A DNA stretch of 11,609 nt from a virus (taxonomy: Duplodnaviria > Heunggongvirae > Uroviricota > Caudoviricetes): IMG/VR virus record IMGVR_UViG_2537561686_000004; one strand, given 5' to 3'. Both the position numbers and the translations under genes were made by a program. Below are positions 2,213 to 11,609 of the stretch, in pieces (positions within the stretch are counted from its first letter, which is position 1; each line of letters starts with the position of its first letter). Below the pieces are notes generated by a model. It was given only the letters and a program-made list of their open reading frames with translations. It was not told the origin of the DNA and did no database searches.

Positions 2213-2947
2213 ATGCCTGTACCAAATCCTGTAATGCCGGTGAAAGGTGCCGGGACCACCCTGTGGGTTTATAAGGGGAAGCGGTGACCCTTATGCGAAT
2301 CCGCTTTCAGACGTTGACTGGTCGCGTCTGGCTAAAGTTAAAGACCTGACGCCCGGCGAACTGACCGCTGAGTCCTATGACGACAGCTATCTCGATGATG
2401 AAGATGCAGACTGGACTGCGACCGGGCAGGGGCAGAAATCTGCCGGAGATACCAGCTTCACGCTGGCGTGGATGCCCGGAGAGCAGGGGCAGCAGGCGCT
2501 GCTGGCGTGGTTTAATGAAGGCGATACCCGTGCCTATAAAATCCGCTTCCCGAACGGCACGGTCGATGTGTTCCGTGGCTGGGTCAGCAGTATCGGTAAG
2601 GCGGTGACGGCGAAGGAAGTGATCACCCGACGGTGAAGTCACCAAGTGGGCGTCCGTCATGGCAGAAGATCGCAGTACGGTACGCGGCAACCGGTATGAC
2701 TGTGACGCCTGCCAGCTCCTCGGTGGTGAAAGGGCAGAGCACCACGCTGACCGTGGCATTCCAGCCGGAGGGTGCAACTGACAAGAGCTTCCGTGCGGTG
2801 TCAGCGGATAAAACAAAAGCCACCGTGTCGGTCAGTGGTATGACCATCACCGTGAAAGGTGTTGCTGCAGGCAAGGTCAACATTCCGGTTGTATCCGGTA
2901 ATGGTGAACTTGCTGTGGTTGCAGAAATCACCGTCACCGACAGTTAA
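2213..2947 (+). pseudogene. V: major tail tube protein V (lambda gpV family), reading frame disrupted by small indels
   Basis: ATG at 2213 (GAGGA at 2204-2208) gives [22 protein letters not shown], then an apparent +1 insertion near 2276-2281 produces a TGA at 2285-2287. V sequence resumes in another frame ([36 protein letters not shown]...[20 protein letters not shown], to about 2630), then shifts again after a cluster of roughly seven 1-bp deletions at about 2625-2690, where MAEDRSTV is readable only in an alternate frame. The C-terminal Ig-like portion ([28 protein letters not shown]...[10 protein letters not shown]) ends at TAA 2945-2947. Confidence 0.8.
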
Positions 2948-2962
2948 TCCGGAGAGTCAGCG

Positions 2963-3385
2963 ATGTTCCTGAAAACCGAATCATTTGAATATAACGGTGT
3001 GAGCGTCACGCTTTCTGAACTGTCAGCCCTGCAGCGAATTGAGCATCTCGCCCTGCTGAAACGACAGGCAGAACAGGCGGGATCCAGTCTCAATCGACAG
3101 GTGAGCGTGGAAGATCTCGTCAGAACCGGTGCTTTTCTGGTGGCGATGTCCCTGTGGCATAGCCATCCGCAGAAGACAAAGATGCCGTCCATGAATGAAG
3201 CCGTTAAACAAATTGAGCAGGAAGTGCTTACCACCTGGCCCACAGAGGCAATTGCTCAGGCTGAAAATGTGGTAATGCGTCTGTCCGGTATGTCTGAGTT
3301 TGTTGTGAATGATGCACCTGAACAGGCAGATGACGCCGGGCCAGCAGAGCCTGTTTCTGCGGGAAAGTGTTCGACGGTGAGCTGA
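2963..3385 (+). CDS. G: tail assembly chaperone G (lambda gpG family)
   Basis: ATG at 2963 preceded by GGAGAG; 140 codons, the same length as lambda G. Translation MFLKTESFEYNGVSVTLSELSALQRIEHLALLKRQAEQ...PAEPVSAGKCSTVS. Contains the GGGAAAG slippery heptamer near its 3-prime end. Confidence 0.9.
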   Translation: MFLKTESFEYNGVSVTLSELSALQRIEHLALLKRQAEQAGSSLNRQVSVEDLVRTGAFLVAMSLWHSHPQKTKMPSMNEAVKQIEQEVLTTWPTEAIAQAENVVMRLSGMSEFVVNDAPEQADDAGPAEPVSAGKCSTVS

Positions 3386-3801
3386 GTTTTGCCCTGAAAC
3401 TGGCGCGTGAGATGGGGCGACCCGACTGGCGCGCCATGCTTGCCGGGATGTCATCCACGGAGTATGCCGACTGGCACCGCTTTTACAGTACCCATTATTT
3501 TCATGATGTTCTGCTGGATATGCACTTTTCCGGGCTGACGTACACCGTACTCAGCCTGTTTTTCAGCGATCCGGATATGCATCCGCTGGATTTCAGTCTG
3601 CTGAACCGGCGCGAGGCTGACGAAGAGCCTGAAGATGATGTGCTGATGCAGAAAGCGGCAGGGCTTGCCGGAGGCGTCCGCTTTGGCCCGGACGGGAATG
3701 AAGTTATCCCCGCTTCCCCGGATGTGGCGGACATGACGGAGGATGACGTAATGCTGATGACAGTATCAGAAGGGATCGCAGGAGGAGTCCGGTATGGCTG
3801 A
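2963..3801 (+). CDS. GT: tail assembly chaperone GT fusion (G frame 2963-3367 joined by -1 frameshift to T frame 3367-3801)
   Basis: The T frame is open from 3367 to TGA at 3799-3801 (144 codons: VFDGELSFALKLAREMGRPDWRAMLAGMSSTEYADWHRFYSTHYFHDVLLD...SEGIAGGVRYG) and has no independent ribosome-binding site. It is reached only by frameshifting from G, giving a predicted fusion of about 279 aa. Confidence 0.8.
3361..3367 (+). promoter_or_regulatory. programmed -1 ribosomal frameshift slippery site (G GGA AAG) for the G-T fusion
   Basis: Heptamer GGGAAAG at 3361-3367 with GGA and AAG in the G zero frame, so a -1 slip re-pairs to GGG AAA and continues in the T frame (GTG TTC GAC ...). Same heptamer and position as the lambda G/GT frameshift site. 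Confidence 0.85.
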
Positions 3802-6373
3802 ACCGGTAGGCGATCTGGTCGTTGATTTGAGTCTGGATGCGGCCAGATTTGACGAGCAGATGGCCAGAGTCAGGCGTCATTTTTCCGGTACGGAAAGTGA
3901 TGCGAAAAAAACAGCGGCAGTCGTTGAACAGTCGATGAACCGGCAGGCGCTGGCTGCACAGAAAGCGGGAGTTTCCGTCGGGCAGTATAAAGCCGCCATG
4001 CGTATGCTGCCTGCACAGTTCACCGACGTGGCCACGCAGCTTGCAGGCGGGCAAAGTCCGTGGCTGATCCTGCTGCAACAGGGGGGTCAGGTTAAGGACT
4101 CCTTCGGCGGGATGATCCCCATGTTCAGGGGGCTTGCCGGTGCGATCACCCTGCCGATGGTGGGGGCCACCTCGCTGGCGGTGGCGACCGGTGCGCTGGC
4201 GTATGCCTGGTATCAGGGCAACTCAACCCTGTCCGATTTCAACAAAACGCTGGTCCTTTCCGGCAATCAGGCGGGACTGACGGCAGATCGTATGCTGGTC
4301 CTGTCCAGAGCCGGGCAGGCGGCAGGGCTGACGTTTAACCAGACCAGCGAGTCACTGACGGCGCTGGTGAATGCCGGTGTGCGTGGTGGTGAGCAGTTTG
4401 AGGCGATCAGCCAGAGTGTGGCGCGTTTCTCCTCTGCATCCGGCGTGGAGGTGGACAAGGTCGCTGAAGCCTTCGGGAAGCTGACCACAGACCCGACGTC
4501 GGGACTGACAGCGATGGCACGTCAGTTCCATAACGTGACGGCGGAGCAGATTGCGTATGTTGCTCAGTTGCAGCGTTCCGGAGATGAAGCCGGGGCATTG
4601 CAGGCGGCGAACGAGGCCGCAACGAAAGGGTTTGATGACCAGACCCGCCGCCTGAAAGAGAACATGGGCACGCTGGAAACCTGGGCAGACAGGACAGCAC
4701 GGGCATTCAAATCCATGTGGGATTCGGTGCTGGATATTGGTCGCCCGGACACTGCCCAGGGAATGCTGGAGAAAGCAGAAAAGGCTTTTGATGAGGCGGA
4801 CAAAAAATGGCAGTGGTATCAGAGCCGGAGCCACCGGCGCGGTAAAACCTCAGCATTTCTTGCCAATCTCCGGGGAGCATGGGAGGACAGAGCGAATGCG
4901 CAACTTGGGCTTTCAGCCGCCACGTTGCAGGCCGATCTTGAAAAGGCCAGAGAGATGGCAGCAAAGGACTGGGCCGAGTCTGAGGCATCACGGCTGAAAT
5001 ATACCGAAGAGGCGCAGAAGGCTTACGAACGGCTGCAGACGCCGCTGGAGAAATATACCGCCCGTCAGGAAGAACTGAACAAGGCACTGAAAGACGGGAG
5101 AATCCTGCAGGCAGATTACAACACGCTGATGGCGGCGGCGAAAAAGGATTATGAAGCGACGCTGAAAAAGCCGAAACAGTCCGGCGTGAAAGTGTCTGCG
5201 GGCGATCGTCAGGAAGACAGTGCTCATGCTGCCCTGCTGACGCTTCAGGCAGAACTCCGGACGCTGGAGAAGCATGCCGGAGCAAATGAGAAAATCAGCC
5301 AGCAGCGCCGGGATTTGTGGAAGGCGGAGAGTCAGTTCGCGGTACTGGAGGAGGCGGCACAACGTCGCCAGCTGTCTGCACAGGAGAAATCCCTGCTGGC
5401 GCATAAAGATGAGACGCTGGAGTACAAACGCCAGCTGGCTGCACTTGGCGACAAGGTTACGTATCAGGAGCGCCTGAACGCGCTGGCGCAGCAGGCGGAT
5501 AAATTCGCACAGCAGCAACGGGCAAAACGGGCCGCCATTGATGCGAAAAGCCGGGGGCTGACTGACCGGCAGGCAGAACGGGAAGCCACGGAACAGCGCC
5601 TGAAGGAACAGTATGGCGATAATCCGCTGGCGCTGAATAACGTCATGTCAGAGCAGAAAAAGACCTGGGCGGCTGAAGACCAGCTTCGCGGGAACTGGAT
5701 GGCAGGCCTGAAGTCCGGCTGGAGTGAGTGGGAAGAGAGCGCCACGGACAGTATGTCGCAGGTAAAAAGTGCAGCCACGCAGACCTTTGATGGTATTGCA
5801 CAGAATATGGCGGCGATGCTGACCGGCAGTGAGCAGAACTGGCGCAGCTTCACCCGTTCCGTGCTGTCCATGATGACAGAAATTCTGCTTAAGCAGGCAA
5901 TGGTGGGGATTGTCGGGAGTATCGGCAGCGCCATTGGCGGTGCTGTTGGTGGCGGCGCATCCGCGTCAGGCGGTACAGCCATTCAGGCCGCTGCGGCGAA
6001 ATTCCATTTTGCAACCGGAGGATTTACGGGAACCGGCGGCAAATATGAGCCAGCGGGGATTGTTCACCGTGGTGAGTTTGTCTTCACGAAGGAGGCAACC
6101 AGCCGGATTGGTGTCGGCAACCTGTACCGCCTGATGCGCGGCTATGCCACCGGCGGTTATGTCGGTACACCGGGCGGCATGGCAGACAGCCGGTCGCAGG
6201 CGTCCGGGACGTTTGAGCAGAATAACCATGTGGTGATTAACAACGACGGCACGAACGGGCAGATAGGTCCGGCTGCTCTGAAGGCGGTGTATGACATGGC
6301 CCGCAAGGGTGCCCGTGATGAAATTCAGACACAGATGCGTGATGGTGGCCTGTTCTCCGGAGGTGGACGATGA
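3794..6373 (+). CDS. H: tail tape measure protein H (lambda gpH family)
   Basis: ATG at 3794 preceded by AGGAGGAG (3780-3787), overlapping the T-frame stop; uninterrupted 859 codons. N-terminus MAEPVGDLVVDLSLDAARFDEQMARVRRHFSGTESDAKK, a long coiled-coil-like Ala/Gln/Glu/Lys/Arg-rich middle, and a Gly-rich C-terminal region (GSIGSAIGGAVGGGASASGG...GGLFSGGGR) as in lambda H. Stop overlaps the M start (ATGA at 6370-6373). Confidence 0.92.
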   Translation: MAEPVGDLVVDLSLDAARFDEQMARVRRHFSGTESDAKKTAAVVEQSMNRQALAAQKAGVSVGQYKAAMRMLPAQFTDVATQLAGGQSPWLILLQQGGQVKDSFGGMIPMFRGLAGAITLPMVGATSLAVATGALAYAWYQGNSTLSDFNKTLVLSGNQAGLTADRMLVLSRAGQAAGLTFNQTSESLTALVNAGVRGGEQFEAISQSVARFSSASGVEVDKVAEAFGKLTTDPTSGLTAMARQFHNVTAEQIAYVAQLQRSGDEAGALQAANEAATKGFDDQTRRLKENMGTLETWADRTARAFKSMWDSVLDIGRPDTAQGMLEKAEKAFDEADKKWQWYQSRSHRRGKTSAFLANLRGAWEDRANAQLGLSAATLQADLEKAREMAAKDWAESEASRLKYTEEAQKAYERLQTPLEKYTARQEELNKALKDGRILQADYNTLMAAAKKDYEATLKKPKQSGVKVSAGDRQEDSAHAALLTLQAELRTLEKHAGANEKISQQRRDLWKAESQFAVLEEAAQRRQLSAQEKSLLAHKDETLEYKRQLAALGDKVTYQERLNALAQQADKFAQQQRAKRAAIDAKSRGLTDRQAEREATEQRLKEQYGDNPLALNNVMSEQKKTWAAEDQLRGNWMAGLKSGWSEWEESATDSMSQVKSAATQTFDGIAQNMAAMLTGSEQNWRSFTRSVLSMMTEILLKQAMVGIVGSIGSAIGGAVGGGASASGGTAIQAAAAKFHFATGGFTGTGGKYEPAGIVHRGEFVFTKEATSRIGVGNLYRLMRGYATGGYVGTPGGMADSRSQASGTFEQNNHVVINNDGTNGQIGPAALKAVYDMARKGARDEIQTQMRDGGLFSGGGR

Positions 6374-6699
6374 AGACCTTCCGCTGGAAAGTGAAACCCG
6401 GTATGGATGTGGCTTCGGTCCCTTCTGTAAGAAAGGTGCGCTTTGGTGATGGCTATTCTCAGCGAGCGCCTGCCGGGCTGAATGCCAACCTGAAAACGTA
6501 CAGCGTGACGCTTTCTGTCCCCCGTGAGGAGGCCACGGTACTGGAGTCGTTTCTGGAAGAGCACGGGGGCTGGAAATCCTTTCTGTGGACGCCGCCTTAT
6601 GAGTGGCGGCAGATAAAGGTGACCTGCGCAAAATGGTCGTCGCGGGTCAGTATGCTGCGTGTTGAGTTCAGCGCAGAGTTTGAACAGGTGGTGAACTGA
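6370..6699 (+). CDS. M: tail tip protein M (lambda gpM family)
   Basis: 109 codons, the same length as lambda M. Translation MKTFRWKVKPGMDVASVPSVRKVRFGDGYSQRAPAGLNANLKTYSVTLSVPREEATVLESFLEEHGGWKSFLWTPPYEWRQIKVTCAKWSSRVSMLRVEFSAEFEQVVN. GGAGGTGG ribosome-binding site upstream; stop overlaps the L start (TGATG at 6697-6701). Confidence 0.9.
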   Translation: MKTFRWKVKPGMDVASVPSVRKVRFGDGYSQRAPAGLNANLKTYSVTLSVPREEATVLESFLEEHGGWKSFLWTPPYEWRQIKVTCAKWSSRVSMLRVEFSAEFEQVVN

Positions 6700-7349
6700 T
6701 GCAGGATATCCGGCAGGAAACACTGAATGAATGCACCCGTGCGGAGCAGTCGGCCAGCGTGGTGCTCTGGGAAATCGACCTGACAGAGGTCGGTGGAGAA
6801 CGTTATTTTTTCTGTAATGAGCAGAACGAAAAAGGTGAGCCGGTCACCTGGCAGGGGCGCAGTATCAGCTACCCATTCAGGGGAGGTTTGAACTGAAGGA
6901 AGGCATCCGCCACCTGACGGTTCTAACCTGACGGATGTCACCGGGATGGCGGAAGATGCAGAGTCTGGTCGGCGGAACGGTGGTCCGGCGTAAGGTTTAC
7001 GCCCGTTTCTGGATGCGGTGAACTTCGTCAACGGAAACAGAGCCGATCCGGAGCAGGAGGTGATCAGCCGCTGGCGCATGAGCAGTGAGCGAACTGAGGC
7101 GGTAGTGCCTCTTTGTCTTCCACCCGACGAAACGGAGGGCTGTTTTTCCGGGCGATCATGCTGGCCAACACCTGCACCTGGACCTATCGCGGTGAGAGTG
7201 CGGTTATCGGTCCGGCGTCGCGATGAATATGACCAGCCGACGTCCGATATCACGAAGGATAAATGCAGCAAATGCCTGAGGGCTGTAAGTTTCGCAATAA
7301 CGTCGGCAACTTTGGCGGCTTCCTTTCCATTAACAAACTTTCGCAGTAA
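6699..7349 (+). pseudogene. L: tail tip protein L (lambda gpL family), heavily frame-disrupted
   Basis: ATG at 6699 gives MQDIRQETLNECTRAEQSASVVLWEIDLTEVGGERYFFCNEQNEKGEPVTWQGR, then the frame is lost at about 6855 (stop at 6894-6896). L-like peptides reappear in shifting frames (NFVNGN-ADPEQEVISRWR at about 7020-7080, TCTWTYRG at about 7170-7200, DEYDQPTSDITKDKCSKCL at about 7220-7280). The C-terminus CKFRNNVGNFGGFLSINKLSQ is back in the original frame with TAA at 7347-7349. Span is 651 nt versus about 699 expected. Confidence 0.78.
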
Positions 7350-7353
7350 TCCC

Positions 7354-8095
7354 ATGACAAGACAGAATCAGCGATTCTGGCGCACGCCCGGCGATGTGCG
7401 CCAGCGGAGTCGTGCGGCTTCGTGGTGAGAACGCCGGAGGAGGAAAGATATTTTCCCTGCGTGAATATCTCCGGTGAGCCGGAGGCGTATTTCCGGATGT
7501 CGCCGGAGGACTGGCTGCAGGCAGAAATGCAGGGTGAGATTGTGGCGCTGGTCCACAGCCACCCCGGTGGTCTGCCCTGGCTGAGTGAGGCCGACCGGCG
7601 GCTGCAGGTGCAGAGTGATTTGCCGTGGTGGCTGGTCTGCCGGGGGGCGATTCATAAGTTCCGCTGTGTGCCGCATCTCACCGGGCGGCGCTTTGAGCAC
7701 GGGGTGACGGACTGTTACACGCTGTTCCGGGATGCTTACATCTGGCGGGAATTGAGATGCCGGATTTTCATCGCGGGGATAACTGGTGGCGTCACGGTCA
7801 GAATCTCTATCTGGATAATCTGGAGGCCACAGGGCTGTATCAGGTGCCGTTGTCAGCGGCGCAGCCGGGCGATGTGCTGCTGTGCTGTTTTGGTTCATCG
7901 GTGCCGAATCATGCCGCCATTTACTGCGGCGACGGTGAGCTGCTGCACCATATTCCTGAACAACTGAGTAAACGAGAGAGGTATACCGACAAATGGCAGC
8001 GACGCACACACTCCCTCTGGCGTCACCGGGCATGGCACGCATCTGCCTTTACGGGGATTTGCAACGATTTGGCCGCCGCATCGACCTTCGTGTGA
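7354..8095 (+). pseudogene. K: tail tip assembly protein K (lambda gpK family; JAB/MPN metalloprotease plus NlpC/P60 peptidase domains), frame-disrupted
   Basis: ATG at 7354 opens MTRQNQRFWRTPGDVRQRSRAASW, which stops at 7426-7428. The JAB-like part is in frame 0 (…FPCVNISGEPEAYFRMSPEDWLQAEMQGEIVALVHSHPGGLPWLSEADRR…GVTDCYTLFRDAY) with the HxHx7Sx2D motif at 7554-7595 and the NlpC/P60 Cys at 7713-7715. After about 7740 this frame becomes nonsense, and the K sequence continues in frame 2 from about 7757 (MPDFHRGDNWWRHGQNLYLDNLEATGLYQVPLSAAQPGDVLLCCFGSSVPNHAAIY…STFV) to TGA 8093-8095. The catalytic Cys and His (7910-7912) are therefore in different frames. Confidence 0.75.
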
Positions 8096-8639
8096 AAACG
8101 GGGGCCGAAGCCATCCGGGCGCTGGCCATGCAGATCCCGGCGTTTCGTCAGAAACTGAGCGACGGCTGGTATCAGGTACGCATTGCCGGGCGTGATGCAG
8201 GTGAAACCGAATTGTCTGCCCGTCTTAATGAGCCGCTGGCAAATGGTGCCGTGATCCATATCGTGCCGCGTCTGGCGGGAGCTAAAAGTGGCGGTGTGTT
8301 TCAGGTGGTGCTGGGGGCGGCGTTGATTGCGGTGGCATGGTGGAACCCTGTGGGCTGGCTGGGTGCCGCGGCTGTATCGGGCATGTATGCGGCAGGGGCC
8401 AGTATGATCCTGGGCGGAGTGGCGCAGATGCTGGCACCGAAAGCCAGGACGCCCACGGCAGCAAGTACAGATAACGGCAAACAGAACACCTATTTCTCCT
8501 CACTGGATAACATGGTTGCCCAGGGCAATGTTCTGCCTGTTCTGTACGGTGAAATGCGCGTGGGGTCACGGTGGTTTCTCAGGAGATCAGCACGGCAGAC
8601 GAAGGGGATGGTGGTCAGGTTGTGGTGATTGGTCGCTGA
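7993..8639 (+). CDS. I: tail tip assembly protein I (lambda gpI family), with an apparent frameshift near the C-terminus
   Basis: ATG at 7993, overlapping the last 103 nt of K in a different frame. Translation MAATHTLPLASPGMARICLYGDLQRFGRRIDLRVKTGAEAIRALAMQIPAFRQKLSDGWYQVRIAGRD...TDNGKQNTYFSSLDNMVAQGNVLPVLYGEMRVGSR. After about 8565 this frame reads WFLRRSARQTKGMVVRLW and stops at 8628, whereas a 1-bp-shifted frame reads the protein-like VVSQEISTADEGDGGQVVVIGR ending at TGA 8637-8639. Span is 647 nt, not a multiple of three. Confidence 0.75.
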
Positions 8640-8657
8640 TGCAAAATGTTTTATGTG

Positions 8658-8689
8658 AAACCGCCTCCGGGCGGTTTTGTCGTTTATGG
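8658..8689 (+). terminator. terminator-like stem-loop between I and J
   Basis: Inverted repeat AAACCGCC (8658-8665) / GGCGGTTT (8670-8677) around a TCCG loop, followed by TGTCGTTTATGG, just upstream of the J ribosome-binding site and start. Confidence 0.3.
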
Positions 8690-8699
8690 AGCATGACGA

Positions 8700-11609
<2,910 letters not shown>

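Follow-up and report, generated by a model that had tools for sequence, protein, structure and literature searches.

The interrupted major tail gene V in a draft lambda-type prophage contig is very probably an assembly error

The window analysed here, a stretch of 11,609 nucleotides, was identified by an exact look-up of its two V fragments as the complete draft contig AQBZ01000022.1 (11,609 bp) of GCA_000358675.2. It contains the 3' end of E, followed by FI, FII, Z, U, V, G, T, H, M, L, K, I and most of J, and is a lambda-type head-tail module in which V lies between U and G-T-H of the tail operon. The nearest relatives were prophages in ETEC isolates, the best being that in the chromosome of ETEC L5_E1779 (designated L003). 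The called V fragment at 2247-2636 matched Pfam PF16461, the N-terminal lambda-type tail tube domain, while the fragment at 2633-2947 matched PF02368 (Big_2).

Several neighboring genes showed features of their own. The -1 slippery heptamer GGGAAAG at 3361-3367, which we take to be the programmed frameshift site for G-T, was intact at the end of G (2963-3385), and the T frame was open from 3367 to 3801, as in lambda. H (3794-6373) was an intact ORF of 859 codons, the lambda H record being labelled 853. The H gene of L003 was annotated as frameshifted, with indel differences at 4271, 5100 and 6019 that were private to L003, and the exact H protein of the window was found on no other contig in the collection searched, so that the window H may be a chimera of alleles. 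In FI (472-858), a 9-nt in-frame deletion near position 601 was common to the window and L003 relative to three other alleles, giving a protein of 128 rather than 131 residues; this is a natural allele difference and not one of the artefacts described below.

Gene V occupied 735 nt (2213-2947), compared with 741 nt in natural alleles, as a result of one extra base and seven single-base deletions, a net change of -6. The lesions were mapped by aligning the nucleotide sequence to lambda V (J02459) and PhiR11_1 V and by pairwise comparison with six V alleles. The features of the gene are as follows.

2213-2215, + strand: ATG start codon of V (translation)
2213-2279, + strand: N-terminal segment of V, codons 1-22, in the ATG frame (translation, alignment)
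2275-2281, + strand: extra base within GGGGAAG (alignment; placement ambiguous)
2280-2628, + strand: central segment of V, tube domain, legible in the +1 frame only (called fragment matches PF16461)
2629-2683, + strand: seven single-base deletions (alignments; no substitutions relative to L003)
2684-2947, + strand: C-terminal Ig-like (Big_2) segment of V, again in the ATG frame

The initial annotation had described an intact start and 22 intact codons, a single insertion and a TGA at 2285-2287, and both translation and alignment agreed with this description: codons 1-22 were followed by K, R and the TGA, which is codon 25 and arises because of the one extra base at 2275-2281. The extra base lies within AAGGGGAAGCGG (2275-2281) and was seen on alignment to lambda V, PhiR11_1 V and the six V alleles. 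The central part of the protein (SGDPYANPL...KEVITR) was read in the +1 frame, in an ORF that extends from 2247 to the stop codon TGA at 2634-2636, and the segment 2280-2628 had one substitution relative to the ETEC chromosomal allele. The annotation had also placed roughly seven deletions in a cluster; the alignments gave exactly seven, at about 2629, 2635, 2645, 2650, 2658, 2681 and 2683, all inside 55 nt that correspond to codons 139-157, the linker joining the tube domain and the Ig-like domain. The peptide MAEDRSTV was legible, as had been proposed, only in an alternate frame, the third, from 2659 onward. The C-terminus (MTVTPASSS...VTDS, with the TAA at 2945-2947) was in the same frame as the ATG, since the net change is -6.

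As written, V could not be read as an uninterrupted ORF of about 246 codons, and the absence of a full-length product that had been claimed on this basis was borne out. The description of the gene as three segments captured the displacement of the central part into another frame but was a simplification, the frame changing eight times in total. An intact V ORF was obtained only once one base was removed and seven were restored. The alignment with lambda gene V that had been proposed as a check thus showed the extra base and the seven deletions to be present, and the observation of a broken V gene in the contig text is confirmed.

One way in which a gene so written might still be expressed is programmed recoding, with V made by ribosomal frameshifting in the manner of G-T, for which a real -1 slippery site is located nearby. 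The ribosome would have to change frame eight times, seven times inside 55 nt, at sites lacking a slippery motif, and the homologues of V are uninterrupted. The alignment excludes this explanation.

The lesions were found in no other copy of the gene examined, and the interruption goes far beyond what chance would give. V was an intact 741-nt ORF in all 37 natural copies that lay wholly inside the fetched loci. When the region was used as a query, 3,526 complete E. coli genomes matched at least 80% of it, and every best match listed aligned 767 nt with the window's 761. Among the phage matches listed, those that span the query aligned 1007 nt for 1001, or 987 nt for 981, and among the plasmid matches listed, nine aligned 208 nt for 201 and one 205 nt for 198. 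Thus, the listed phage, plasmid and complete-genome matches over the deletion cluster all have the seven missing bases, and those over the whole gene are a net six longer. An exact match to a 76-nt string across the V cluster was absent from the GTDB representative genomes and from 2.9 million IMG/VR contigs, an exact scan of the 2.9 million IMG/VR viral contigs for the +1 string found none, and an exact look-up of both V fragments found them on no other contig in the collection.

Once repaired, V encoded a protein of 246 residues with an exact match in public data (P0004). PF16461 was recognized with 236 bits at residues 18-152 and Big_2 at residues 161-239, and residues 1-245 matched the lambda tail tube protein of known structure, with PDB 2L04 matching at 158-245. 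Because all seven deletion sites are synonymous, the same protein results whichever base is put back; the sole ambiguous residue is S or N at position 23. Public data contain an exact match for each of the four combinations of S/N23 with S/T171. The strict repair, S23/S171 (P0004), occurred in one metagenome contig (designated L109), N23/S171 in five contigs, S23/T171 in 247 contigs and N23/T171 (P0001) in at least 1000 contigs. The repaired DNA, for which the best ungapped identity was 98.8%, had no exact match and is a mosaic at the allele level.

Missing bases were not limited to V. A global alignment of the window with L003 gave 225 substitutions, with 117 bases deleted and 15 inserted. 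About 100-110 further missing bases, similar in kind to those in V, were found in L, K, I and J (6699-10620), among them gaps of 6 bases at 6907 and 3 bases at 7040, and from this region the gene caller yields about 10 short ORFs. The main clusters are as follows.

6859-7359, + strand: about 50 deleted bases, gene L fragmented (alignments)
7738-8570, + strand: scattered single-base deletions in K and I (alignments)
9085-10604, + strand: about 49 single-base deletions, gene J fragmented (alignments)

The stretches 1-2274, 2684-6858 and 10605-11609 had no such errors, although natural alleles vary there too. The K/I overlap at 8250-8500 was hypervariable, with 37 substitutions and several compensating indels relative to L003, and agreed with the Tritos-type allele (see below) at about 50 sites, a pattern that indicates natural mosaicism or a copy switch.

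E. coli commonly carries defective lambdoid prophages whose tail genes are frameshifted, and a real pseudogene would be a natural reading of the contig, with V, L, K, I and J frameshifted in vivo in a decaying cryptic prophage. V is untranslatable as written, and in L003, the closest complete relative, H, L and K are marked as pseudogenes. However, decay would bring substitutions, whereas the V cluster had seven deletions and no substitutions relative to L003, and the contig was identical to L003 over its first 1,500 nt and its last ~600 nt. When four references were compared, private deletion columns numbered 107 in the window, together with 1 private insertion, but only 0-11 in each of the four natural relatives, which had 121-248 private substitutions apiece, so that the ratio of private deletions to substitutions was at least 1.3 in the window and at most 0.06 in the natural relatives. 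Lesions of this kind shared by descent with related strains were not found in the records searched, the repaired protein has an exact natural counterpart, and decay does not pick out the class of sites described next. We consider it very unlikely that V is a real pseudogene.

The position of the deletions relative to natural variation was determined from pairwise alignments in which equivalent positions within a run were treated as the same; a three-way MAFFT alignment that included Tritos merged adjacent gaps and under-counted the coincidences. With a panel of four other alleles, 61 of the 117 deletions were at polymorphic sites. Taken gene by gene against four references, the count was 6/7 in V (null 0.20, P = 3e-4), 17/50 in L (P = 2e-9) and 30/49 in J (P = 7e-19). 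A second test, which is independent of the panel, asked whether a deletion was at, or run-equivalent to, the third codon position. The isolated deletions compatible with the third position numbered 7/7 in V, 27/28 in L, 5/6 in I and 37/39 in J, or 76/80 overall, with a null of about 0.51.

The seven V sites were CGT/CGC, AAA/AAG, AAT/AAC, GGC/GGA, TCG/TCA, GTA/GTG and ACG/ACA, all of them synonymous, at the third codon position and variable among natural alleles. The one V site outside the 6/7 given above, TCG, was TCH in 85 IMG/VR contigs. The commonest haplotype, represented by 39 of those 85 contigs, departs from L003 at exactly three sites, all of which are deleted in the window, and the other four deletion sites are accounted for by the lambda-type haplotype. 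None of the natural V alleles in the panel differed by itself from L003 at all seven sites; therefore two haplotypes, or an unsampled one, are needed. The extra base overlies polymorphisms at Gly22 (GGA/GGG) and at residue 23 (AGC/AAC, Ser/Asn), for which the natural variants in the fetched loci were GGGAAC (19), GGGAGC (17) and GGAAGC (3), and GGGGAAGC at this site reads like two variants retained side by side.

In L, the relevant second allele was that of phage Tritos (OV696610.1, designated L013). Tritos L and L003 L differ at 40 sites in the span 6859-7359, and 34 of the 40 are exactly the missing bases. Known variant sites accounted for 43/48 of the L deletions with a small union panel and for 42/50 with a different panel. 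About 5 of the 48-50 L deletions and 10/20 of those in J at 9480-9930 were off the sites that are polymorphic in a small panel. Tritos has a non-lambda head, V, G, T and H, but its L-K-I-J region is ~90% identical to the lambda type, and a Tritos-kind prophage would overlap the window module from L onward only, which is where the largest deletion clusters start. Tritos was also considered as the second allele beyond L and was rejected, as it fitted poorly in J and its V was not homologous.

These counts also bear on whether the bases were lost at random, as drop-outs in base calling from low-coverage or low-quality reads in which paralogous copies were not involved. The errors were deletion-biased and locally dense (3-20% per base), the window is a 2013-era draft contig and assembly indel errors are a known cause of false frameshifts (PMC13577107), all of which would suit such a process. 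It would not, however, account for the third-position compatibility of nearly all of the isolated deletions, for the loss of most of the Tritos-type differences or for the polymorphism of all seven V sites. Moreover, a homopolymer bias of the deletions was tested across the contig and none was found, so that homopolymer-type errors were ruled out. Random drop-outs are therefore a very unlikely cause of the lesions.

The implication of the initial annotation, that V is a disrupted or degenerate tail gene, thus did not hold, since the lesions are private and fall on synonymous sites that differ between alleles, and the repaired protein is a natural one. Neither mutation nor random base-calling error can select synonymous inter-allele sites, and a process that compares alleles is therefore required. 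The ordinary process that does so is computational. We conclude, with high confidence, that the V lesions are an assembly error produced by merging two or more co-resident lambda-like prophage copies.

Consensus algorithms can drop SNP columns that they do not resolve, which would turn SNPs into indels. In the proposed sequence of events, 1) the sequenced E. coli would carry two or more diverged copies of the lambda-like head-tail module, 2) reads, or correcting reads, of two or three paralogous copies would be stacked during read correction or consensus calling, 3) where the copies agree, the consensus would be perfect, 4) where they differ, mostly at synonymous third-codon SNPs, neither base would have a majority and the column would be dropped, leaving a one-base deletion, and 5) once, at 2275-2281, both variants would be retained, giving the +1. 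The absence of errors from the stretches 1-2274, 2684-6858 and 10605-11609 means that the merging must have been local. A review of assembly errors lists collapsed repeats among them and, separately, notes that indel errors cause frameshifts (PMC13577107).

We infer that the source strain carried two or more copies of the module and that a consensus step made the errors. Genomes that match the module, which are related genomes and not the source strain, do so at a median of 3 places and at up to 15, and in two genomes one chromosome carries the same V allele twice. Like repeat contigs, the window is short and stands alone, with its ends inside E and J. A second phage copy was also seen in ETEC L5_E1779, whose 'plasmid 2' (NZ_LR883007.1, designated L008) is a 46-kb circle that is 96.9% identical to the window and in which six genes (FI, U, G, H, K and J) carry frameshift annotations; this circle could be a prophage that has excised or is replicating, or long-read indel errors could be responsible.

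A biological process that also compares alleles can be envisaged. If co-resident diverged prophages recombined and the mismatched bases of the heteroduplex were excised, real one-base deletions would be left at the former SNP sites, and these would also coincide with inter-allele differences. The V deletion cluster lies at a switch of the nearest allele, which also fits the merging of copies, because the substitution counts change across it: upstream there was 1 substitution in 416 nt relative to L003, while downstream there were 8 relative to L003 and 2 relative to L109. Nevertheless, five tail genes would have been inactivated at once, a search of 5,426 complete genomes, of the phage and plasmid collections and of IMG/VR found nothing similar, and no such outcome of heteroduplex repair is known in E. 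coli. If true, recombining prophages would be inactivated by a mismatch-templated deletion process not described before, but we regard this as extremely improbable, and the merging of copies during assembly is the preferred explanation.

The broken V gene is almost certainly not a real biological feature, and V is otherwise of the ordinary lambda type. In the strain itself, the V genes are most likely intact, each 741 nt long and coding for an ordinary 246-residue gpV tail tube protein. The biological significance of the lesions is thus close to nil. An annotation of the contig would nonetheless report a prophage in which about five tail genes are pseudogenised, and the false V pieces of 129 and 104 residues are already in protein databases. 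The pattern also provides a diagnostic that needs no reads: deletions that far outnumber substitutions and are confined to synonymous third-codon sites differing between alleles distinguish a mixed-copy error from a real pseudogene.

Compared with lambda gpV (J02459 8955-9695; PDB 2K4Q, 2L04, 6P3E and 8IYK), the window V had 21 substitutions in 741 nt, and 7 of the 246 residues of the repaired protein differed. PF16461 and Big_2 are common to both, and the lambda gene order Z-U-V-G-T-H-M-L-K-I-J is that of the window. Unlike lambda V, the window ORF is broken by one +1 and seven -1 lesions that are absent from the other V genes examined. Defective lambdoid prophages, such as the cryptic ones of K-12 and O157, resemble the window in that an E. 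coli lambda-like tail module has unreadable tail genes, but in them decay leaves lesions that are inherited in common, occur alongside substitutions and ignore codon position, whereas none of this applies to the window. The window also resembles the consensus errors of collapsed repeats or merged haplotypes in draft and long-read assemblies: it is a short contig of an element that is multi-copy in related genomes, and its indels are confined to the sites where copies differ, with a large excess of deletions and false frameshifts that split genes; the errors in the window do coincide with copy-differing sites, as expected if copies were mixed.
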